DNA of 53,130 nt from a virus. Lineage: Duplodnaviria > Caudoviricetes. Location: positions 1-53,130 of IMG/VR virus record IMGVR_UViG_3300037461_000603; one strand, 5' to 3'. A model generated the notes under the pieces. It was not told the origin of the DNA. It made no database searches and worked only from the letters and a program-made list of their open reading frames with translations. The position numbers and the translations under genes were made by a program. Below, one piece after another: positions 1 through 15,523 of this stretch. Position 1 is the stretch's first letter, and every line of letters begins with the position of its first letter.

Positions 1-306
1 AGCTCGCGTCCAGACGTCTACAGTCTGCAGACAATCCACGCAGTTGCGGAAGAGCCGGTCGAGCTTGTACGCGACCACGGCGCCGACCGCCCCGGAGCTC
101 GCCAGCTCGAGGAGCTCCGCGCCTCGTTCCCGGGTCGCGAGTGGTTTGCCGGCGCTCACTCCGGGGTCACCGAGCACAGATGAGAGTTCCAGGCCACGCA
201 TCGCGCAGTAGGACCGCAGCCGATCCTCCTGCGCTCCGAGCGACAGGCCCTCGATGGCCTGCTCGGCGGTTGACACTCTCACGTATCCGACGGCGCGTGT
301 TCCCAT
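1..306 (-). CDS. Serine recombinase/resolvase family protein, N-terminal part (runs off the window)
   Basis: Manual translation from ATG at 306: MGTRAVGYVRVSTAEQAIEGLSLGAQEDRL...VVAYKLDRLFRN. It has the catalytic YxRVST and DRLxR motifs. Not in the ORF track. Confidence 0.9.
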   Translation of the reverse strand, partial: MGTRAVGYVRVSTAEQAIEGLSLGAQEDRLRSYCAMRGLELSSVLGDPGVSAGKPLATRERGAELLELASSGAVGAVVAYKLDRLFRNCVDCLQTVDVWTRA

Positions 307-352
307 GGTGATCCCCTGCCTCTCTCCATCGGAAGCGGCCCCTCGATCCGGA

Positions 353-769
353 CTACTCCCGAGCGCACGCCTGTCGCTCCCGGAGCTCGCGCTCGAGCGG
401 GATCAGGAGCAGCCAGTCAGCGACCTTGTGCTCGAGGTTCTCGGCCCCTGGCATCAGCGTGTCCACGCGGTGGTGGATCAACTCGTGGATCAGCGACGTG
501 CGCCCGAGACAGCCGGAGACCATCTCTACCTCGACCAGGCCGCTCTCGTGGTAGAGCCCTGTCACTTCGTCCGTCATCCACTCTTCGGAATCGAGCTCGA
601 GCAGGTGGATCTCGACGGGGTAGAGGTCGATCAGCGGGTGCACGCGCTGCGCCGCCCACTCGACGAGCTCGGTGTCGACTTCGGACGTGCTCAGGTTGAC
701 GACGGTGATGGCTGCCCGCTCGCCGCATGCTGCGAGTATGAAAGTCATGGAGATTGTGACATGTTTCAT
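353..769 (-). CDS. Putative lipoprotein with HExxH zinc-metallopeptidase motif
   Basis: MKHVTISMTFILAAC lipobox-like signal; SLIHELIHH motif. Confidence 0.6.
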   Translation of the reverse strand: MKHVTISMTFILAACGERAAITVVNLSTSEVDTELVEWAAQRVHPLIDLYPVEIHLLELDSEEWMTDEVTGLYHESGLVEVEMVSGCLGRTSLIHELIHHRVDTLMPGAENLEHKVADWLLLIPLERELRERQACARE

Positions 770-791
770 CGCCGGCCCCCCTTCTTCCGTT

Positions 792-1424
792 TTAGTACTC
801 GATTTCTTCAGCATGCTCGCCAGCGCAGTCCTCGGTGTGCCCTGCGCCTTGCCAGCAGTAGCAGTCGGGATAGCCCAGATCCCACCCTCCACCGGCCGCG
901 GTGATCACGGAGCCGTCCGCAAAAGTCCAGCGGTACACCATGCGCTCGCCGGTGCTATCGCGCTTGCCCCCGGCCTCGGCGCACGCCGTGTCGAGGTCAA
1001 TGCCTTGATCGTCCTTCCAGCGCTGGCCATCATCGTGGAAGCGGGCTGCGATCTGCTCGGCGGTCGTTGCAGTCCAGTAGCGATCGTCGATCTCCCGGAT
1101 GGCGTCGGCAATCAGGGTGCAGATGTGGTCAACGGCGTCGTGGTCGGTCGCGGCCCAATCCTCCGGATCGTCGCCAGCACGGCATGCGTCGCAATCGCAT
1201 GCGACAGATCCGGTGCCGACAATCGTCAGCACCTTGACGCTCTGAATGTTTTGGTCAGTCGGGTTGCGGTAGGCATCAGGCAGGATCGTGCGCTCGTCAC
1301 GATTGATCGAGTCGACCACGACGAGCGTGCCGTCGGGCCAGATCTCGGCGCGAGCGTAGCCACTCTGATGCGCCTCCACGGCGAGTTCGGTTGCCGCCTT
1401 GATGATGTCGCTTTGCGTTGCCAT
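792..1424 (-). CDS. Hypothetical phage protein (Cys motifs CDCDAC, CYC)
   Basis: ORF with AGGAGA RBS before MATQSD. Confidence 0.7.
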   Translation of the reverse strand: MATQSDIIKAATELAVEAHQSGYARAEIWPDGTLVVVDSINRDERTILPDAYRNPTDQNIQSVKVLTIVGTGSVACDCDACRAGDDPEDWAATDHDAVDHICTLIADAIREIDDRYWTATTAEQIAARFHDDGQRWKDDQGIDLDTACAEAGGKRDSTGERMVYRWTFADGSVITAAGGGWDLGYPDCYCWQGAGHTEDCAGEHAEEIEY

Positions 1425-1500
1425 CGTCGTTCTCCTTGTGTGGTGGTCCATTCCGCTGCTGATGCCCAGGTCGCCCAGGGGCACGGAGCAGGGGAGCGGC

Positions 1501-1737
1501 TCAGTCCAGCTCTCTAGTGATCACACAAAATGCCTTGGCGCCGGGGTCGTCCTGGGCGTCGTCTGCGCTCGCCCATACCAGCGTCCGGTCGCCGCCCTCG
1601 CCGAGGTCGCCAGCGTGCCCGACCACGCAGCCCTCCCACGACGGCTGGTCGAGTAGCGAGTCAATCAAATCCTCGTAGCTCTCTGCCTCGCGGCGTCCAG
1701 TCGTCCCGTCTGCGTACGTCAGAAGGTAGCGCGCCAT
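1501..1737 (-). CDS. Hypothetical phage protein
   Basis: AGGAGA RBS before MARYLL; acidic, phage-like composition. Confidence 0.7.
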   Translation of the reverse strand: MARYLLTYADGTTGRREAESYEDLIDSLLDQPSWEGCVVGHAGDLGEGGDRTLVWASADDAQDDPGAKAFCVITRELD

Positions 1738-1776
1738 TGTCGTTCTCCTTCCTGTGGTTGCCATGGGCATGCCTCA

Positions 1777-2040
1777 TCAGCCGTGCAGCGTCGTTTCGTC
1801 GGCGTCGAGCCGCTCACGGATTCGATAGATTGCGAATTGGCTGCCGTCGTCGTCCTCCATCTCGACGTACTCACCCACGAGGCCAGCGGTCTGGAGCACG
1901 TCCAAGAAAGCGTCGAGTTCGCGTCCGTCGGGCTGCCGATCGTGGCGGATTCGCACGAGCATGCCTGCGGCCGGCGCACCCGGATCCATTGCGTGGTCCC
2001 AGCTGCCTGTGTACTTGTCGATCGTGATGTCGCGTTGCAT
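1777..2040 (-). CDS. Hypothetical phage protein
   Basis: MQRDITIDKY...; co-oriented within the minus-strand cassette. Confidence 0.55.
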   Translation of the reverse strand: MQRDITIDKYTGSWDHAMDPGAPAAGMLVRIRHDRQPDGRELDAFLDVLQTAGLVGEYVEMEDDDGSQFAIYRIRERLDADETTLHG

Positions 2041-2107
2041 GTGACCCCCAAGTGCTTTCGGGCAATCTTGCCCTAGTTCGTGTCCTGCTACCACATCGCA
2101 AACGCGG

Positions 2108-2767
2108 TCAAAAAGCGGACAGCTCCTCCGCCGCTTTTTTGGCTGCGTCATCGGCACTCATCCGTGAGAAGATCGGCAGGAGCTCTCGCGCCTGCTCGAG
2201 AGTAAGCCGCACGTCGCGCAATTCGATCCGTGTCTCGGTGTCGCTGTGATATAGCGTCGCGCGGTAGATGGCTCCACTTGGGTACCAGCACAGATCTGAG
2301 CCGTCCTTGCGTGCCTCTCCAAGCCACTGCGAGAGCTCGGCTATGACCTCGTCCTTGCGACGCTCGAGAGCATCCAATTCGGCGAGCTTGGCTTCCGCGG
2401 CCGCATACAGCATCAGATAATCAGGGAGGAGACGGCGGTCGATGTCCCGGGCGATCTTGGCTGCGGGTTTCAACGCATTCGCGCCGATTGACGGCTCGCG
2501 GTCGTGGTATCCGATGATTCCGAGATTTTGAAGGCTGGCGTTGCGTGGGTAGATACCTCGGATCGTGAGCTTGCTGGTGTGATAGTCAATCGACACCAAG
2601 AGCTTGTGTCCGGCATCGTCGGCTATCTCGTGCCAGTGGCTGCGATCGGGATCGTGTGGTGCTATTCTCCATACTCCCTCGAGGTTCGCGGCGACCTGTC
2701 GGCAGATCTCGTGAACCATGCGATCGCGATCGTTGCACGACAGGCGCAAGAACGATAGCGGTTCCAT
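2108..2767 (-). CDS. Hypothetical phage protein
   Basis: 219-aa ORF within the cassette. Confidence 0.7.
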   Translation of the reverse strand: MEPLSFLRLSCNDRDRMVHEICRQVAANLEGVWRIAPHDPDRSHWHEIADDAGHKLLVSIDYHTSKLTIRGIYPRNASLQNLGIIGYHDREPSIGANALKPAAKIARDIDRRLLPDYLMLYAAAEAKLAELDALERRKDEVIAELSQWLGEARKDGSDLCWYPSGAIYRATLYHSDTETRIELRDVRLTLEQARELLPIFSRMSADDAAKKAAEELSAF

Positions 2768-2850
2768 GCATCACCCCATCTCGAGAGCACCATTGCTCGA
2801 CTCGGGCCGCTGGCGCACGAACGCCAAGGGCCCGCGTCCAGCAATGCCAC

Positions 2851-3174
2851 TCAGTGCGTGCCCCAAGTCATCCCGCCATCATGCGAATGGACACCAGCGT
2901 TGATTGCGGCCGGATTCAACTTGCGGCCGGAAAGCGCCTCGGCTCTGGCGATTGCACGGCGGAGCTCGGGCGAATTCGCGGCGACCAACTTACGATAAGC
3001 GCAGGCATCAAATAGCATGCTGCGATCGCCAGTCCATCCGCGGAACGCAAGCGCGCCGTTCGCGCTGATGACCACCGTTGCCGTTCCAGCCGCGAGCTGT
3101 TTTCTCAGCCGATCAAGCGCATCCCTCTGTTTCTGGCGCATGATCTCGGTAAGGTCGATTCGGTCGCATGCCAT
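2851..3174 (-). CDS. Small protein of the AAA-ATPase module (DACAYR...HSHDGG.TW)
   Basis: AGGAGG RBS; lies directly downstream of the AAA ATPase and its partner gene. Confidence 0.75.
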   Translation of the reverse strand: MACDRIDLTEIMRQKQRDALDRLRKQLAAGTATVVISANGALAFRGWTGDRSMLFDACAYRKLVAANSPELRRAIARAEALSGRKLNPAAINAGVHSHDGGMTWGTH

Positions 3175-3207
3175 GGCTGGGGCCCTCCTGTTTTGTTGGC
3201 TCTCATC

Positions 3208-4032
3208 TCAGATGAAATCGAACGACGGCACGGCATATTCGGCCATTGCTGCCGCGACTTCTGGCGACTCATCCGGTGGAGCGAATTCAACGGCGCGCGC
3301 GGCAACGGGTGCGTCCTCGACCTCCTTTTCCTCGTCGAGGTCCAGGAAAGCGAACCGGGCGCTTGCGATTGCCTCAGTGCGTAGCTCGGCGATCACGTCC
3401 GCGGCACGCTCGCCTGATTTCTCGACGCGACGCGTGATCTCGCGAGCGGCTGCGCGCGCTTGATCGATTGCGGATGAGACCGCATCGGCAGCGTCACCGG
3501 ACAGCATAGCACCGATCGACCGGGCCCGGTTCGCTGCGTCGCGGATTGCCTCGGGATCTGCAGCTGCAATGCCCGATTGCATTGCAGAGAGTAAATCGCG
3601 AATCTCCGAGGAGATAGCGCGCGCCGCCTCAACATCATCATCCGCGATCCGGCCAGCGATCGCGTACACCGACACGTGACACGTGGCGGATGTGGCGTTG
3701 AAATCGTCCGCCAACTTGCGAGCGGCCGCAATGCACTCCCGGAGATTCTCCCCACGATCGACTGGGCAGAGCAAACCGAATTCGGAGCGGGAGCATACGC
3801 CAGTGATCAGGGTGCGGCACTTGGAGCGAACCCTGATTGCTGCCTCATATTCTACGGGATCTTGCACCTCGCGCGTCGTAAGCCACGTGGCAACCGCGGC
3901 GCCGTCGGACGTGGTCTCCGAGGAGACATCCATTCGCGAATACCGCGGTCCGCCGTTGACAGTGGATCGGAGAGCCACGAGATATCCCGGGCGGAGGATG
4001 CGAGCGGCGATTTTGTCAGTGGTCGGTTGCAT
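3208..4032 (-). CDS. Helical partner protein of the AAA ATPase (possibly DUF3150-like)
   Basis: 274-aa Ala-rich helical ORF, GGAG RBS, operonic with the ATPase. Confidence 0.7.
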   Translation of the reverse strand: MQPTTDKIAARILRPGYLVALRSTVNGGPRYSRMDVSSETTSDGAAVATWLTTREVQDPVEYEAAIRVRSKCRTLITGVCSRSEFGLLCPVDRGENLRECIAAARKLADDFNATSATCHVSVYAIAGRIADDDVEAARAISSEIRDLLSAMQSGIAAADPEAIRDAANRARSIGAMLSGDAADAVSSAIDQARAAAREITRRVEKSGERAADVIAELRTEAIASARFAFLDLDEEKEVEDAPVAARAVEFAPPDESPEVAAAMAEYAVPSFDFI

Positions 4033-4077
4033 GTCATCTCCCGTACGTTGTGGTTTCGGGTCTCTGGTGTCTATCGA

Positions 4078-5610
4078 TTACAGGTCCAAAGAGCGGACAC
4101 TTTGCGCGGACGATTCTTCTGGCGATGACGCCGATCGAGCTCGGCCGCGGGCCCAGTCTCGCACGGCCTGGATTCTATCGGCGCTTGTGCGTGCGAGCGG
4201 CACGGTTGCGCCAGCTGCAGCCACTAGATCGGCAGTAGACAGAGGGCGCGCTCCATCGGAAAAGGCCGTATAGAGCGCATCTGGGACAAGCGCGGCAATC
4301 TCGGAGCCGGTGAAATCCTGGCATGCACGTGCAACGGCCTGCAGGTCGATTGACTCGGTGCGATTGTGAGCCCGCAAGGCTGCAGCTACGATTGCGGCGC
4401 GCTCGCTTGTGGTCGGCAGGTCGACGAAAAACAGCTCGTCAAAACGGCCCTTGCGGAGTAGTTCAGGGGGAAGGGCGCGGACGTCATTGGCCGTTGCGAC
4501 CACGAACACGTCGCCTTGCCGTTCTTGCATCCATGACAGGATCGTACCGAGCGCATCAGCGCTAACCCCGCCGTCGGCGGCGCCTTGCGTTGCACCGGAA
4601 AGCGCTTTTTCGATTTCGTCAAGCCATAGCACACACGGCGCTACCGTTTCGGCCACCTTCAAGGCTTTGCGGATGTTCGCTTCGGAATCGCCAACCCATT
4701 TCGATTTGAGTGCACCCAAGTCGAGACGCAAGAGCGGCACACCCCATGCCGTGGCGATCGCCTTGGCCGTGAGACTCTTGCCGCACCCCGGGATGCCCAC
4801 GAGGAGAGCGCCTTTCGGGGCTGGCAAACCATAGGCGCGCGCCTCACGAGTGAATGCGGCGCGACGAGACACCAGCCATGATTTGAGCAGGTCCAGACCG
4901 CCAACGGCGTCAAGACCGCCAGAGATCGGATCGTACCACTCGAGCACCTTTTCACGGGAGATGACGCGACGCTTTTCCAAGCTGACGTCACGGGGCACGA
5001 TCTTGCGAGACTGAACAAGCGAGCGAGCGTAACAGGCTTGCGCTTCTTCTGCCGTGAGACCGACCGCGGCATCAATCGCGGCTTCTCGGGTTCCATTCGG
5101 TGCGGCGGAATCGCGGATGTCGTCGGGCAACGCGGCGATCACACTATCAAGGATGCTGGCGATTTCCGCGCGATCGGGCAACGGCCAGTCCACGACAATA
5201 GCGTGTCCTGCGAGCTCGGGTGGGATCTCCCCGACGGGGGATAGCACGACAAGCGCGCGCGCCGTGTCACGTGGCTGCAGCGATAGATTACGCGCCAAGG
5301 TGCGGACGGCGCGGAGGATGACTGGATCCGCAAGCCACTTGTGGAGATCTCGGAGCACGTATACGGCGCGATCGGTGCGATCACGAACACGTGCAAGCAC
5401 AGAGCTCGGATCGGTCAGAGACGAATCAACCGCCGATCCGTCATACGAGGTGAGACCCGTTGCACAGTCCCAAAAAAGCGGCGCATATTGTGCAGCTTGG
5501 CATGCCTCGAGTAATCCCCTCTCGGCTCGCGATTCTTCACGCGTGACAACCCACAGTAAGGTGTTTCGGGCCCGCAGTAGCGCGGCAATATCGGAGGATG
5601 TACGTTGCAT
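4078..5610 (-). CDS. AAA+ ATPase, Ycf46/SpoVK-like
   Basis: Walker A GIPGCGKS, Walker B LWLDEIEK, ATAN, arginine finger LRKGRFD, degenerate N-terminal AAA domain. Confidence 0.93.
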   Translation of the reverse strand: MQRTSSDIAALLRARNTLLWVVTREESRAERGLLEACQAAQYAPLFWDCATGLTSYDGSAVDSSLTDPSSVLARVRDRTDRAVYVLRDLHKWLADPVILRAVRTLARNLSLQPRDTARALVVLSPVGEIPPELAGHAIVVDWPLPDRAEIASILDSVIAALPDDIRDSAAPNGTREAAIDAAVGLTAEEAQACYARSLVQSRKIVPRDVSLEKRRVISREKVLEWYDPISGGLDAVGGLDLLKSWLVSRRAAFTREARAYGLPAPKGALLVGIPGCGKSLTAKAIATAWGVPLLRLDLGALKSKWVGDSEANIRKALKVAETVAPCVLWLDEIEKALSGATQGAADGGVSADALGTILSWMQERQGDVFVVATANDVRALPPELLRKGRFDELFFVDLPTTSERAAIVAAALRAHNRTESIDLQAVARACQDFTGSEIAALVPDALYTAFSDGARPLSTADLVAAAGATVPLARTSADRIQAVRDWARGRARSASSPEESSAQSVRSLDL

Positions 5611-5688
5611 GGTATGTCCTTTTCTCGAGTAAGTAATGGGCTCGCCGAATGCCTCATCCGCAAGGGACGGGGCATCGGAGCGAAACCA

Positions 5689-6096
5689 CTAGGTGAATGC
5701 ATGCACGCGGATGATGGAGTCTTGCGGCGTGCGTAGGAGTGTCCATTCCCCATCGGTGCCGCATGGCGTGCAACCATCTCTCAGCAACCGAGCCTGATAC
5801 TCTGGCATGTCTTTGACTCGGGGAATGCTCGCGTCGGATGGATGATGAATGCTCGGCTCGAGCCATCCGCACGCAGTCTTGCGGTAGGTCACGCGGGAGA
5901 ATCCCATTGTGCGTGCGGACGTCCGACGAGCCCGGGATTTGACGGCAACGGGCGGCGCAACGGTGTCTGCAGCTGGCATCGGACGGGACACACATGCCGA
6001 TCGGATGAGAGACAATGCCTCATCGATGCATGACAGCATGTCGTCAATCGCGGACTGCAATGACATGGTCTCTGTGGCGAATGAAAGGCTTGTCAT
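5689..6096 (-). CDS. Hypothetical phage protein
   Basis: GGAG RBS, 135 aa. Confidence 0.6.
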   Translation of the reverse strand: MTSLSFATETMSLQSAIDDMLSCIDEALSLIRSACVSRPMPAADTVAPPVAVKSRARRTSARTMGFSRVTYRKTACGWLEPSIHHPSDASIPRVKDMPEYQARLLRDGCTPCGTDGEWTLLRTPQDSIIRVHAFT

Positions 6097-10661: not shown

Positions 10662-11180
10662 ATGAGCAAGACGACGATCACTGAGGCGTTGGCAGAGATC
10701 AAGACGATTGCGAAGAGGATCGAGGCGAAAGAGCGGTTCGTGATGAACTACCTCGTTCGCCCAGACGTTGTCCGCGACCCGCACCCAGAGGGATCTGTTG
10801 TCGTCGTCGGACGGGAGCTGCAGTCGCTTCGCGATCTCCGCACTCGCTGGATGCGGCTACGCCAAGCGATCGCGGAAGCCAATGCCAAGACGCACATGAC
10901 GATCTTGGGCATAGACCGCACCATCGCTGAATGGCTCATCTGGCGCCGCGAGATCGCTGACGGCGAGCAGGCATTCATTGGCCGCATATCTTCCATGATT
11001 CAAGAGGTCTCGAAAGAGATCGTGAAGCAGTCGTCGAGGGAAAATCCGATCCAGCCTGTTGTGTCGGTCGATGAGAGGTATCTATTTGCAGAGGCTGAGA
11101 TGCATCAGGAGGTCACCGGAACTCTCGACGGAAAGCTGTCGTTGCTGAATGCGACGACGTTTGTCGAAGTGCAGGACTAG
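10662..11180 (+). CDS. DIP1984/'septicolysin'-like coiled-coil protein
   Basis: TITEALAEIK.I.KRI...LRQAIAEANA.T...I......TIAEWL..RRE...LDGKLSLLNATT.VEV pattern. Confidence 0.7.
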   Translation: MSKTTITEALAEIKTIAKRIEAKERFVMNYLVRPDVVRDPHPEGSVVVVGRELQSLRDLRTRWMRLRQAIAEANAKTHMTILGIDRTIAEWLIWRREIADGEQAFIGRISSMIQEVSKEIVKQSSRENPIQPVVSVDERYLFAEAEMHQEVTGTLDGKLSLLNATTFVEVQD

Positions 11181-11192
11181 GAATTCAGGTTT

Positions 11193-11507
11193 GCCATCTT
11201 TCGTGAGCGATGCGAGAGAATGAGTCACATCAAGTCCAGACTAGCTCAACGGGTAGAGCACATGGTTGTGGACCATGAGGCCGCTGGTTCGAGTCCCGTG
11301 TTTGGCTCACATGATCACCCCACACAGGCGATCGTGCAGCATCAAAGCGCATCGATGAACGCTCAGAAGCTCAGGATACCAACGTTCACCGATCAGTGTT
11401 TAGCGATTCTACAAATCCATCATCACATTGCCGACTGCAGAGATGCGGTCGGACCGCAACGTGACACGGCGGTTTCTCGGATGGATGGCTGCTCTCAGGA
11501 AGATGGC
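11193..11507 (+). ncRNA. Candidate structured ncRNA (~315 nt) with a closing stem, embedded tRNA-like domain, 7-nt periodic tract and GNRA hairpin
   Basis: 5' GCCATCTTTC(G)TGAG pairs with 3' CTCA-GGAAGATGGC; internal CCGACTGCA-GAGA-TGCGGTCGG hairpin; ATCCATC/GATGGAT helix. Confidence 0.65.
11234..11309 (+). tRNA. tRNA-His(GUG)-like cloverleaf, non-canonical ends
   Basis: D arm GCTC/GAGC, anticodon arm CATGG-TTGTGGA-CCATG, T loop TTCGAGT. It has a 1:72 T-C mismatch, a T-stem mismatch, no C73 and no encoded CCA. Confidence 0.75.
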
Positions 11508-11582
11508 TCCCTCTTTCCACGTGGTTTCTTCGCTCGTCCTGGATTCGACGACCACGAAGAATACCTCTGAATAGGACATCAG

Positions 11583-12308
11583 GTGACAGCTCCGCGTCTC
11601 GTTATCGTCTCAGGTTCCGGTCGTTGTGGAAGCTCTCTGCTCATGCAGATGTTGAGCGCTGGTGGAGTTGCATGCTCCGGTCCCTATCCGAACTTCGAGG
11701 ACCCGCGTGCCATGCAGGGGCTTGACCTCGAGTGGCTGTCGTCGTTTCACGGTGCGGTCAAGATCCTCGATCCGCATCGTTACCTGCCATCCGGTTTCGT
11801 GCTCTATGACGCGCGTGGAATCTGGCTGGATCGCGACCGCAAGCAGCAAGCCATCTCGTGGTGCAAGATCTCCAGGGATGTCGTGGGTCGCAAGAATGTT
11901 TCACGTGAAGACGTGCCGCGAGTGGCGAAGCGCCTCAAGGAGTCGCGAAAGCCAGGCGTTCAGAAGCTCGTCGACGTGACAGGTCGTGGTCCTCTTTGCC
12001 TCACGTTCGAGGGCATCCTCGCAGCACCGCGCTCCGCGGCAGAGAAGATGGCCAAGTTTCTCGAGATGGAGCTCGACGTCGCGCGCATGGCGGCGCAGGT
12101 GATTCCGCGGACATCGGCTTGCATCAATGGACTGCTCGAGAACGACATGGTGCGCATGGGACAGCGTGCCGTCGAGAACATGGTCCGCCAACAGCGCGGA
12201 ATGACCACCGAAAACGAAGGAAAAGAAGACGAGTCCAAGATGAACATCGTTCGACAGCCGATGGAGATCGCATCTGCGGCTGTCGCGATGTCACACAGGA
12301 GAATCTGA
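11583..12308 (+). CDS. Sulfotransferase-family P-loop protein
   Basis: IVSGSGRCGSSLLMQML PAPS-binding-like loop, R-x7-S motif (RDRKQQAIS), later LTFEGIL..P. Confidence 0.75.
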   Translation: MTAPRLVIVSGSGRCGSSLLMQMLSAGGVACSGPYPNFEDPRAMQGLDLEWLSSFHGAVKILDPHRYLPSGFVLYDARGIWLDRDRKQQAISWCKISRDVVGRKNVSREDVPRVAKRLKESRKPGVQKLVDVTGRGPLCLTFEGILAAPRSAAEKMAKFLEMELDVARMAAQVIPRTSACINGLLENDMVRMGQRAVENMVRQQRGMTTENEGKEDESKMNIVRQPMEIASAAVAMSHRRI

Positions 12309-13996: not shown

Positions 13997-15523
13997 GTGC
14001 CCATCACGCCAGATCAAGCTGTTCAGGAAATCTTCACACGACGCGCCGCGCGCGAGAATCTCCTGGCGTTCACGGCCTATACGCACCCGAGATGGAGGAC
14101 TGGACCGCATCATCATCTAATGGCTGATGCTCTCGACAAGGTCATCAACGGACAGCTGAAGCGGGTGATCATCTGCGCTCCTCCTCGTGGAAGCAAGAGC
14201 GAGATGGCGACTAGGCGTCTACCGCCATTCTTCATGGGGAAGTTTCCTGACCGTCAGATCATCACAGCGTGCTACGGAGACGCCCTCGCGCATGACATGG
14301 GCAAGGACGTCCGTGGAATCATCAAAGAGACCCGCTACCTCAACCTGTTTCCAGACGTTCGTCTTGCGGCGGACACGCGTGCTGCCGGTCGCTGGAACAC
14401 GAACAAGGGCGGGATCTACATCAGCTGCGGTGTTGGTGGCCCGATTGTGGGCCGTGGTTTTCACATCGGCCTGATTGACGATCCGTTCAAGGGAAGGAAG
14501 GAAGCGGACTCTCCGCTTGTTCGTGAAGACGTCTGGAAATGGTATTGGGGCAACTTCTACACCAGGCGCATGCCTGATTTCGACGACCCTGTTGAGGATC
14601 AAGAAGGCTGGGGGAATGCTGCCATCGTGTTGATCATGACCCGCTGGCACCAGGACGACCTCGCCGGCAGGTTGTTGAAGCAAGAAGGCAGCGTCGATGA
14701 GGGTGGAACATGGACCGAGGTTGACATTCCAGCGATTCGCAACGAGGACTCACTTGACGAAGAGTCATTCTGGCCGGAGGCATTCCCGATCGATGAATTG
14801 CAGGCCACCCGAGCAGCAATGATCAGCGCAGGAAGAAGCCGAGAATGGTCTGCGCAGTACAAACAGAGACCAACTGTCGAAGAAGGCACGTTCATCAAGA
14901 GGGCATGGTTCGAGAACAGGTATCAGCAGGTTCCTGAGAAGACCAGGATCTACATCGCCTCCGACTACGCGACTGTCGATGAGAGCGAGGGCTCAAATCC
15001 CAACTTCACTGAGCATGGCGTCTTTGGGATGTCGCCAAATGGTGACCTGTACGTACTCGATTGGTGGTTTGGTCGCACTGAATCTGATGTTTGGGTCGAA
15101 AAGCTGCTCGATTTGGTCCTGAAATGGCACCCCAACGCCGTGTTCGGTGAAAAAGGGCAGATCGTCAGGTCTGTAGGGCCATATCTGCGGCGCCGAAAGA
15201 AGCAGAGGAGCCTCAGATTCCGTCTGGAGCTCATCGCCAGATCGAAGGATAAGCAGGAATGCGGACGTGGCTTTCAGGCCATGGCATCCAGCGGAGAAGT
15301 GTTGTTCCCTGAAAAAACACCTTGGGCCGAGAGGGTCGTCGAACAGTGTGTCGGGTTCCCATCTGTCGAATTTGACGACGCCTTCGATGTCATGTCATTG
15401 ATGTGCATGGCTATTGACATTGCACATCCTGCATTGTCGTATTCAAGAAGATCCGAGGGTATGGAGAAACGCCGTGACCGGTGGCGGGTCGAGAGCAATC
15501 CGACAAGCTGGAAGACGGTGTAG
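13997..15523 (+). CDS. terL: Terminase large subunit
   Basis: PPRGSKS Walker A, GRG..IDDP.K, TRWHQDDL.G, YxQRP, RNase H-like nuclease with DD..D. Confidence 0.96.
   Translation: MPITPDQAVQEIFTRRAARENLLAFTAYTHPRWRTGPHHHLMADALDKVINGQLKRVIICAPPRGSKSEMATRRLPPFFMGKFPDRQIITACYGDALAHDMGKDVRGIIKETRYLNLFPDVRLAADTRAAGRWNTNKGGIYISCGVGGPIVGRGFHIGLIDDPFKGRKEADSPLVREDVWKWYWGNFYTRRMPDFDDPVEDQEGWGNAAIVLIMTRWHQDDLAGRLLKQEGSVDEGGTWTEVDIPAIRNEDSLDEESFWPEAFPIDELQATRAAMISAGRSREWSAQYKQRPTVEEGTFIKRAWFENRYQQVPEKTRIYIASDYATVDESEGSNPNFTEHGVFGMSPNGDLYVLDWWFGRTESDVWVEKLLDLVLKWHPNAVFGEKGQIVRSVGPYLRRRKKQRSLRFRLELIARSKDKQECGRGFQAMASSGEVLFPEKTPWAERVVEQCVGFPSVEFDDAFDVMSLMCMAIDIAHPALSYSRRSEGMEKRRDRWRVESNPTSWKTV

Follow-up and report, generated by a model that had tools for sequence, protein, structure and literature searches.

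A phased seven-nucleotide repeat array in a structured phage RNA linked to an orphan protein gene

Introduction

The window analysed here, the complete IMG/VR virus record IMGVR_UViG_3300037461_000603 (53,130 bases; Duplodnaviria, Caudoviricetes), carries in a 402-nucleotide (nt) intergenic gap a structured RNA whose distinctive part is an array of 7-nt units, or heptads, conserved in phase among distant relatives and predicted to be unpaired. The RNA lies on the + strand, as do its parts and the two flanking genes given below, after a gene for a protein of 172 amino acids (aa) with a predicted fold most like that of DIP1984 (10662..11180), which is its constant partner, and before a gene for a protein of 241 aa. 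About 300 nt long as a whole element, it comprises from 5' to 3' a conserved motif, a slot for a tRNA or a hairpin, the heptads, a three-way junction with a GNRA loop, and a tail. That the RNA, its periodicity and its linkage to the protein gene are real we regard, taken together, as nearly certain. In our estimate it is an RNA class of its own, with an orphan protein as partner, while the principle that it may use, phased repeats read by an oligomer, has precedents in unrelated systems. A fixed-length, unpaired and 7-nt-phased array is an unusual type of domain, dozens of members occur in viral metagenomes and genome bins, and an orphan protein family gains a defined RNA partner as its first handle.

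The explanation that we favour for this element, and to which as a whole we would give just short of an even chance, takes the array as a landing pad in a new RNA. The RNA would be made on the transcript of the protein gene, probably by co-transcription, starting a few bases after the stop codon; the two halves of the array would form a multivalent single-stranded landing pad for several copies of the co-inherited, self-associating protein, much as in HutP or TRAP, and the folded junction would position it. The permissive slot holds a hairpin or a whole tRNA gene, the GGCUGC...GGAGG tail would often double as the ribosome-binding site of the next gene, and the resulting RNA-protein particle would act on the phage's own gene expression or replication.

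A search of window positions 11150-11620 against Rfam 15 (4227 models, including GOLLD, ROOL, riboswitches and ribozymes) returned at E<=10 a tRNA, discussed below, and four chance-level matches, the best of them sR1 (15.7 bits against a gathering threshold of 45); the same database gave only tRNAs for 12 strong members of the family at E<=0.1, and no description of this RNA was found in searches of the literature. Pieces of it may be among the 8495 unnamed candidate structures that have been catalogued from IMG/VR (PMC10690425).

The heptad array

An earlier note on this DNA, made from the letters alone, had singled out 11345-11409 as a run of 7-nt units in fixed phase, arising neither from codons nor from recent slippage, and had read it as one unit per subunit of an oligomer of the upstream protein. 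The 65 letters that it quoted match the sequence, and the phase holds for most of the units, two of the nine quoted being 8 nt long instead. Judged against 5000 dinucleotide-preserving shuffles, identity within the tract is 0.362 at lag 7 (z 2.1, p 0.029) and 0.431 at lag 14 (z 3.1, p 0.0012), and the best lag among 2-20 has p 0.027; the proposed autocorrelation thus exceeds that of shuffled sequence, but it is only borderline once the whole window is scanned. The composite of lags 7 and 14 stands in the top 0.18% of the window's 65-nt windows, a value reached at 11 separate places, and periods of 4, 5, 8 and 10 each attain an equal value in 0.2-0.3% of such windows, so that the tract alone is about what a scan of 53 kb would yield. 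Within the 65 nt there are four copies of GNTCA against 0.36 expected, a clustering that the window shows nowhere else. With a heptad weight matrix derived from the relatives alone, the window being excluded, the tract has four matches, a number that equals the window maximum and is not unique.

The homologous loci, where the earlier note had proposed a comparison that could refute it, gave a strongly positive answer: beside distant homologues of the upstream protein (31-49% identity) the 7-nt repeat is clearer than in the window itself. In a first set of loci, which in some cases includes the same contig fetched twice, nine of 12 assessable loci beat the window's score, usually as the locus-wide maximum. 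Two loci of this set, L023 and L024, have the tract moved outside the stretch tested by an inserted HNH gene. This gene, an HNH-endonuclease-like open reading frame (ORF; CxxC ... DH ... CxxCH) at 1242-1690 of L024 and present also in L023, sits between the protein gene and the 5' motif and looks like a free-standing homing endonuclease splitting the module. A protein profile (A1) added 75 viral loci, and in 44 of 68 profile-found loci the strongest period-7 signal of the whole locus lay on the downstream side of the gene, no more than 1 kb from it. Membership counts here and below refer to loci found through the protein, except for a small RNA-first test, and include several near-duplicates. 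On this footing, when each locus is ranked against itself, 50 of 64 members have the tract before the junction at the 99th percentile or higher (38 of 64 at the 99.9th or higher), and six of nine independent loci have it at the 99th or higher; period 7 beats periods 4, 5, 8 and 10 in 52 of the 64 members and in eight of the nine independent loci. Period 7 is thus the best non-codon period in most relatives, and the claim that it is conserved and comes from neither codons nor slippage has stood.

Alignment of 62 tracts (A5) gives a common layout: two sets of four units, parted by about 8 nt of spacer, and then an A-rich linker, AAAAYCC. The unit consensus is A-A-A/C-G-Y-U-N (AAAGYUN), with positions 2, 4 and 6 most fixed; in an iterated weight matrix from 64 members and 420 sites, the frequencies are A 0.81 at position 1, A 0.94 at position 2, A 0.74 or C 0.21 at position 3, G 0.94 at position 4, C 0.49 or U 0.29 at position 5 and U 0.89 at position 6, while position 7 takes any base. 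Among 402 gaps between successive sites, spacings of 7 (155 times), 8 (33), 14 (39), 15-16 (39) and 21-23 (24) recur, and conservation is highest in the heptads at the two ends. The length of the tract, counted across all its units, has a median of 65 nt and an interquartile range of 64-75. Hairpin-like extra bases enlarge the spacer of four loci (L050, L063, L066, L068), so that the halves behave as separate sites there.

In this register the window's tract occupies 11344..11408, starting one base before the coordinates given earlier, and its 65 nt equal the family median. Aligned one for one with the units of relatives, it divides into a first set of four units (11344-11372, with one extra base at 11365), a central spacer (11373-11380) and a last set of four (11381-11408), with weight-matrix sites at 11344, 11358, 11366 and 11381. 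One of the 8-nt units quoted earlier, GGATACCA, covers the conserved central spacer, which reads CAGGAUUU in several relatives. In GC-rich members, the window included, AAAG has shifted to AACG, which is why lag 14 is stronger than lag 7 in the window. By this alignment, the window's tract is a GC-shifted, degenerate copy of the conserved 4+4 array, and a signal that is marginal in one genome can thus be the eroded copy of a strong family-wide feature. RNAalifold assigns no consensus pairs to the tract across 62 sequences, and the tract is thus predicted to be unpaired. Pairing between the two half-arrays was considered and dropped, the same calculation giving no consensus pairs, and pairing of the tail's GGCUGC with the last heptad unit was not found by eye.

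Could the window's tract nonetheless be a chance pattern, or part of a 71-codon frame running from an ATG at 11355 to 11570? Its significance in the window is borderline, as said, and the frame is open across the spacer, with gene-like GC at codon positions 1 and 2; yet the units align with those of 61 relatives, the stretch also carries covarying helices, and GC at third codon positions is 0.52 against 0.65-0.73 in the neighbouring genes. The frame has no family matches, and its sole peptide match, in L017, is a chance word match inside an unrelated gene. We consider it very improbable that either origin accounts for the tract.

The folded RNA around the array

The tract lies, as had been supposed, inside a real, conserved and structured RNA, on the evidence of covariation in the adjoining junction and of covariance-model matches in relatives. 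A junction seed alignment of 25 sequences (A2) holds 23 RNAalifold pairs, 21 of them with compensatory changes, and the window matches the corresponding covariance model at 11402-11514 with 82 bits (E 4e-17). In an alignment of 70 rows, both partners have changed in 22 of the 23 pairs; the share of paired cells is 95.1%, where shuffles give 56.8% (none of 500 reaching the observed value) and slid partners at most 42.9%. These rows were fitted to the model, which favours the structure, and the margin is large. Only this strand can fold, because G-U pairs are frequent. Taken singly, the window's 276-nt spacer gives no significant fold (z -1.0).

In the window the nearly invariant AAA..CC columns of the A-rich linker (CAAAUCC, 11412..11418) lead into the three-way junction at 11417..11488, drawn from the covariance model and RNAalifold. 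The junction model places P1 at 11417-11421 with 11484-11488, P1b at 11426-11429 with 11480-11483, P2 at 11431-11452 with its GNRA loop GAGA at 11440-11443, and P3 at 11453-11473. The conserved 3' tail (11487..11502) consists of GGCUGC, five bases and a block that is rich in purines and resembles GGAGG (GGAAG in the window); all 25 seed sequences share GCTG, and the two G's that open GGCUGC close P1.

Upstream of the slot stands the 5' motif, a conserved block at 11192..11222 with the consensus GCCUUCGGyaGCGAAGuGrGAGAA. It was recognised in 46 of 64 members and precedes the heptads by 65-175 nt, with two exceptions, whose placements the reading of the junction strands suggests to be false regex matches. 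In 27 of 42 members its GCGA begins 16-30 nt past the stop codon of the protein gene, which leaves no room for a separate promoter, and hence we infer that the RNA is co-transcribed with the protein gene. A sigma-70 promoter within the motif was considered and set aside, the would-be -10 element being without the conserved final T (by eye) and a promoter scan giving none on this strand. The motif may further pair into the junction as a proposed pseudoknot, P0, formed in the window by CGAGA at 11213-11217 and the unpaired junction strand UCUCG at 11475-11479. Watson-Crick pairs occur in 25 of 45 and 33 of 45 members at two positions (permutation p 5e-5 and 4e-4), p values that kinship of the sequences may inflate and to which automatic choice of register adds noise; the support is weaker than for the junction helices.

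The tail raises the possibility that the element is a cis-acting leader for the genes after it, its heptads being a ribosome standby or enhancer tract. The GGAGG-like block that ends it is followed after 4-13 nt by a start codon in roughly half of the 30 members listed, transcription would usually read on, terminator-like hairpins within 220 nt after the RNA being rare (three of 64 members against three of 271 control windows; no intrinsic terminator follows it in the window), and the pseudoknotted junction resembles a riboswitch-type fold. In other members, however, the next start codon is 36-170 nt away with a ribosome-binding site of its own, and in the window only a 23-codon open frame follows (11503..11574, from six-frame translation), which starts too close to the purine block for that block to be a typical ribosome-binding site. 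The genes downstream are, moreover, unrelated between phages, the constant partner being the gene upstream. With these points taken together, a leader function is in our opinion rather unlikely.

Linkage to the protein gene and distribution

The RNA and the protein gene upstream of it are closely linked. At E<0.01 the covariance model (R1) finds the RNA in 66 of 80 protein-bearing sources, without exception on the strand of the gene, and in none of 10 control loci fetched through the terminase alone. In all eight genome-bin loci outside model building the RNA is present, at a distance of 160-380 nt past the gene. By label the bins are Anaerolineales, Alphaproteobacteria, Vicinamibacterales, Gemmataceae, Desulfobulbia, Gemmatimonadaceae, Pseudomonadota and, in one case, unclassified, and the module-bearing bins are assigned to at least five bacterial phyla. 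The 14 model misses comprise five truncated loci, four weak matches and five loci with a diverged or undetected 3' domain. Of the last kind, L067, L083 and L088 retain an evident run of heptads together with the A-rich linker and a tail resembling GGCUG (GGCUGA in the first two, GGCUA in L088) around an interior that is simpler than, or different from, that of the junction family, and L099 and L101 have a looser repeat of a UUCAAGG-like unit broken up by hairpins. Approached from the RNA, an exact-pattern scan yielded eight viral matches, of which six pass the model, three of the six lying on new contigs; in both new contigs with enough upstream sequence (L105 and L106) the gene lies directly upstream of the RNA. 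The same pattern in genome contigs gave only chance, none of the 80 matches listed (of at least 120) passing the model. The order is reversed, RNA before gene, in L091 (41 nt apart) and in L076 (682 nt apart, with small ORFs between).

Beyond this pair, little is held in common: among 11 neighbouring genes in the window none recurs beside the module elsewhere, except one terminase. Because no other gene is shared between loci, the gene and the RNA behave as a mobile two-part module in otherwise unrelated phages, a mobility that suggests a self-sufficient function. Cultured phages offer nothing nearer than distant homologues, in Otagovirus. In one of these phages, Pseudomonas phage phiPsa315 (L233, 3240-3520), a 426-nt unannotated gap after the homologue's gene phiPsa315_103 has a heptad-like run and a 15-bit match to the junction model (E 0.06), followed by an intrinsic terminator, and it also has a near-consensus sigma-70 promoter; this locus may be a reduced variant in a cultured phage, and is offered as a lead only.

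The company that the module keeps bears on a further alternative, namely that the repeats work at the level of DNA, where a phage protein would bind them as replication-origin iterons or as a packaging site. In a sample of 20 neighbouring proteins from 14 loci, 16 have a PHROG match, 11 of them in the DNA, RNA and nucleotide metabolism class, with labels such as DNA polymerase, helicase, exonuclease, replication initiator, thymidylate synthase and Erf, and with a UvsX-like recombinase under 'other'. Eight direct repeats beside replication and recombination genes in many of the sampled loci would suit iterons, as would, as a lead only, a look-alike of the partner protein in the Atlas, a cluster named 'Siphovirus Gp157 family'; the Gp157 family is linked to phage replication modules. 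The repeats, however, adjoin without a break, and always share the strand of, a structure that folds on one strand only, sites that follow one another at 7 bp fall on different sides of the duplex, and the window has neither a second array nor an inverted copy. A role of the repeats in DNA therefore seems to us most improbable.

Terminase genes had also prompted, because they lie 2.4 kb downstream of the module in the window, the idea of a late-operon antiterminator cassette of the Q/qut or N/nut type; it is weakened by the module's occurrence mostly among replication genes in the further phages that were sampled and by terminators not being enriched after the RNA.

The partner protein

The 172-aa protein has 561 homologues at E<=1e-5, all unnamed or 'hypothetical', the best identity being 41-49%. 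Searches of Pfam, PHROGs and NCBIfam gave nothing above cut-off, only weak matches to DIP1984_fam, DUF6847 and a PHROG labelled 'tail fiber'. DIP1984_fam (NF038048) scores 20.2 bits (E 5e-4) against a cut-off of 70 bits and matches three of 10 members, with no match to NF038048 anywhere in the record; weak DUF6847 profile matches occur in 12 of 67 members. A search of PDB sequences gave nothing significant. An AlphaFold2 model from 67 sequences (predicted local distance difference test, pLDDT, 96.9) has four long helices and a small sheet. The best PDB match to this predicted fold is 3kdq, a Corynebacterium diphtheriae protein of unknown function (Foldseek E 7e-5, probability 1.00; template-modelling (TM) score 0.53-0.59, root-mean-square deviation 8 Å), and an Atlas structure row named 'DIP1984 family protein' reaches TM 0.62; viral fold matches are all uncharacterised. 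The weak profile matches and the predicted fold, closest to 3kdq, may both point towards DIP1984/DUF6847, but at 20 against 70 bits, and towards a bacterial family without known function, so that the likeness explains nothing. Longer, fused forms of the protein were not found among its homologues, which is weak evidence. The family is near neutral (median isoelectric point 7.1), with nine basic positions kept and two invariant tryptophans.

The earlier note had taken the upstream protein for an oligomer, and prediction agrees: four copies co-folded reach a score of 0.58, a mark attained in calibration by 20 of 30 solved homomeric pairs and one of 23 single chains, while the highest of three controls stands at 0.04. 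The co-folding runs agree in at least 71% of contacts, with partner pLDDT of at least 81; the predicted interface is symmetric and dimer-like, and the pass may partly reflect memory of 3kdq. The earlier note's comparison with repeat reading of the TRAP or Hfq type does not extend to kinship, neither being a relative.

Whether it is this protein that the array receives is the least secure part of the argument. The heptads might instead be a decoy or recruiting site for a host factor of single-stranded RNA (ribosomal protein S1, an RNA chaperone or RNase E), with the protein doing a separate job. The tract is unpaired, A-rich and multivalent, the at least five bacterial phyla of the bins would fit a conserved host target, and the protein is without an RNA-binding signature. 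A host factor would nevertheless leave the near-constant pairing with this one protein gene unexplained, and no host factor is known to have a motif of 7 nt in which every other base is constant as A, G and U. We judge this alternative unlikely.

That the adjacent protein reads the repeats is put forward tentatively, as a plausible proposal to which we would assign somewhat less than even probability. Several observations weigh against it. The protein is near neutral in charge, has no recognised nucleic-acid-binding fold in its predicted structure and belongs to no informative family, and the predicted interface is dimer-like instead of forming a ring with four or eight sites. The window's own tract is only borderline significant, the middle units being weak both here and family-wide, and ten protein-bearing loci have a diverged or undetected RNA junction. 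The sampled neighbours with a PHROG match are mostly replication and nucleotide-metabolism genes, which would also suit a role at the DNA level or in replication. Adjacency and co-inheritance, finally, also follow if the RNA only regulates the gene or is only co-transcribed with it.

A bolder form of the landing-pad explanation would have the protein oligomer measured on the 4+4 array as on a ruler, one subunit per 7 nt on two half-sites, with the pseudoknotted junction holding the ruler and a whole tRNA as cargo in the slot, the whole being a phage ribonucleoprotein of a new kind and a self-contained mobile module that tunes replication or expression, or delivers or protects phage tRNAs; we hold this form to be less likely than not.

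Comparison with known systems

A precedent for one 7-nt unit per subunit does exist, as the earlier note had supposed, though in another protein. HutP binds three 7-nt repeats on each of its two faces, the sites being joined by a 17-nt linker (PMC2425495). In both systems 7-nt repeats on unpaired RNA fall into two clusters with a linker between, here two clusters of four with a spacer of about 8 nt. HutP, however, reads XAG plus four spacer bases in 3+3 units, whereas here A2, G4 and U6 are fixed in 4+4 units with A or C at position 3; its array lies within a terminator, and that of the phage RNA beside a three-way junction with terminators not enriched. The HutP fold is absent among the listed matches of the partner protein, predicted to be a helical bundle with a small sheet and with 3kdq as its top match. 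HutP is thus, on our reading, the nearest working analogy, and as protein, motif and context are all unrelated it is not a matter of membership.

Phased copies of a short motif are also bound by an oligomer or by many dimers in the TRAP/trp leader and in CsrA with CsrB/RsmZ. TRAP reads about 11 G/UAG triplets 2-3 nt apart, and CsrA reads GGA in hairpin loops. The array described here has about eight units with spacings of 7, 8, 14 and 15-16, neither the motif nor the spacing of TRAP or CsrA is present in it, and both families are absent from the Pfam, NCBIfam and PHROG results for the protein. In type III toxin-antitoxin systems like ToxIN, tandem repeats of about 36 nt precede an endoribonuclease toxin gene, with a terminator between the two. 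By that definition, no PADLOC search having been made, the present module differs in having 7-nt repeats that are usually downstream of the gene.

GOLLD and ROOL are phage or prophage RNAs of unknown function often found near tRNA genes, with tRNAs in some cases located inside GOLLD's linker (PMC12286853). The likeness to them, in a complex pseudoknotted fold and a tRNA in a slot, leads to a further alternative, an RNA-only assembly in which the junction domains would multimerise and heptads and slot would be a flexible tether. The element is likewise phage-encoded and near tRNAs, and as in these RNAs a tRNA may occupy a variable linker (PMC12286853). Many GOLLD members, however, exceed 800 nt, against about 300 nt here, and no protein partner is reported to have been identified for ROOL (PMC12286853), whereas a constant one, along with a periodic single-stranded array, distinguishes the present element. 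Neither Rfam model matches the window or the 12 strong members, and a sequence-specific 7-nt phase with a fixed length would not persist in something that served only as a tether. An RNA-only assembly is for these reasons quite improbable.

The tRNA slot

Part of what the earlier note had seen as a candidate RNA is a tRNA-His (GUG) gene that it had missed, at 11236..11306 (ARAGORN; Rfam RF00005), scoring 49.1 bits against a gathering threshold of 29 and ending so that the tract starts 38 nt after it. A possible small hairpin, from a single-sequence fold, lies between the two (11311..11335). Across the family, the slot between 5' motif and heptads holds a tRNA called by ARAGORN in 22 of 64 members, with at least 11 named identities and four more of unassigned type, and the remaining members have a hairpin or tRNA-like arm there. 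The slot is relevant to the question of why phage RNAs without known function tend to group with tRNA genes.

Two members show pieces of tRNA character without an ARAGORN call: L001 has at 723-830 an acceptor-like stem around a long insert and a T-arm, and L006 has at 3575-3610 an isolated T-arm-like hairpin upstream of its heptads. On the other side, tRNA genes stand directly 3' of the RNA in L061 (3425-3500), L096 (only 2 nt apart), L064, L103 and L059, so that the element can sit inside a tRNA cluster.

Genomic setting of the window

Close relatives of the window at the DNA level were found in neither phage records, IMG/VR, genome contigs nor metagenome contigs, and in two public DNA sequencing runs there was nothing beyond identical pieces and tRNA matches that were unrelated; no RNA run is listed as containing the DNA. 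Upstream of the RNA by about 2 kb, a 221-aa protein encoded at 8593-9258 matches PHROG 645, whose label, 'Rnase E' (E 1.5e-18), is one of RNA metabolism; no relatives of it were found in the other module-bearing loci. The gene that follows the RNA, outside the module (11583..12308, with a GTG start at 11583), encodes the 241-aa protein, which has an N-terminal P-loop and a weak sulfotransferase-like match, below cut-off, to Pfam Sulfotransfer_3 (E 0.0034); no relatives of it were found in viral or genome contigs or in the other module loci. The large terminase gene is at 13997-15523. GC content is 0.60-0.68 in 1-6000 and 33000-53130 and 0.53-0.59 in 6000-33000, and the cumulative GC skew has its turning point near 33 kb, so that the record is possibly a mosaic or has host-like flanks.

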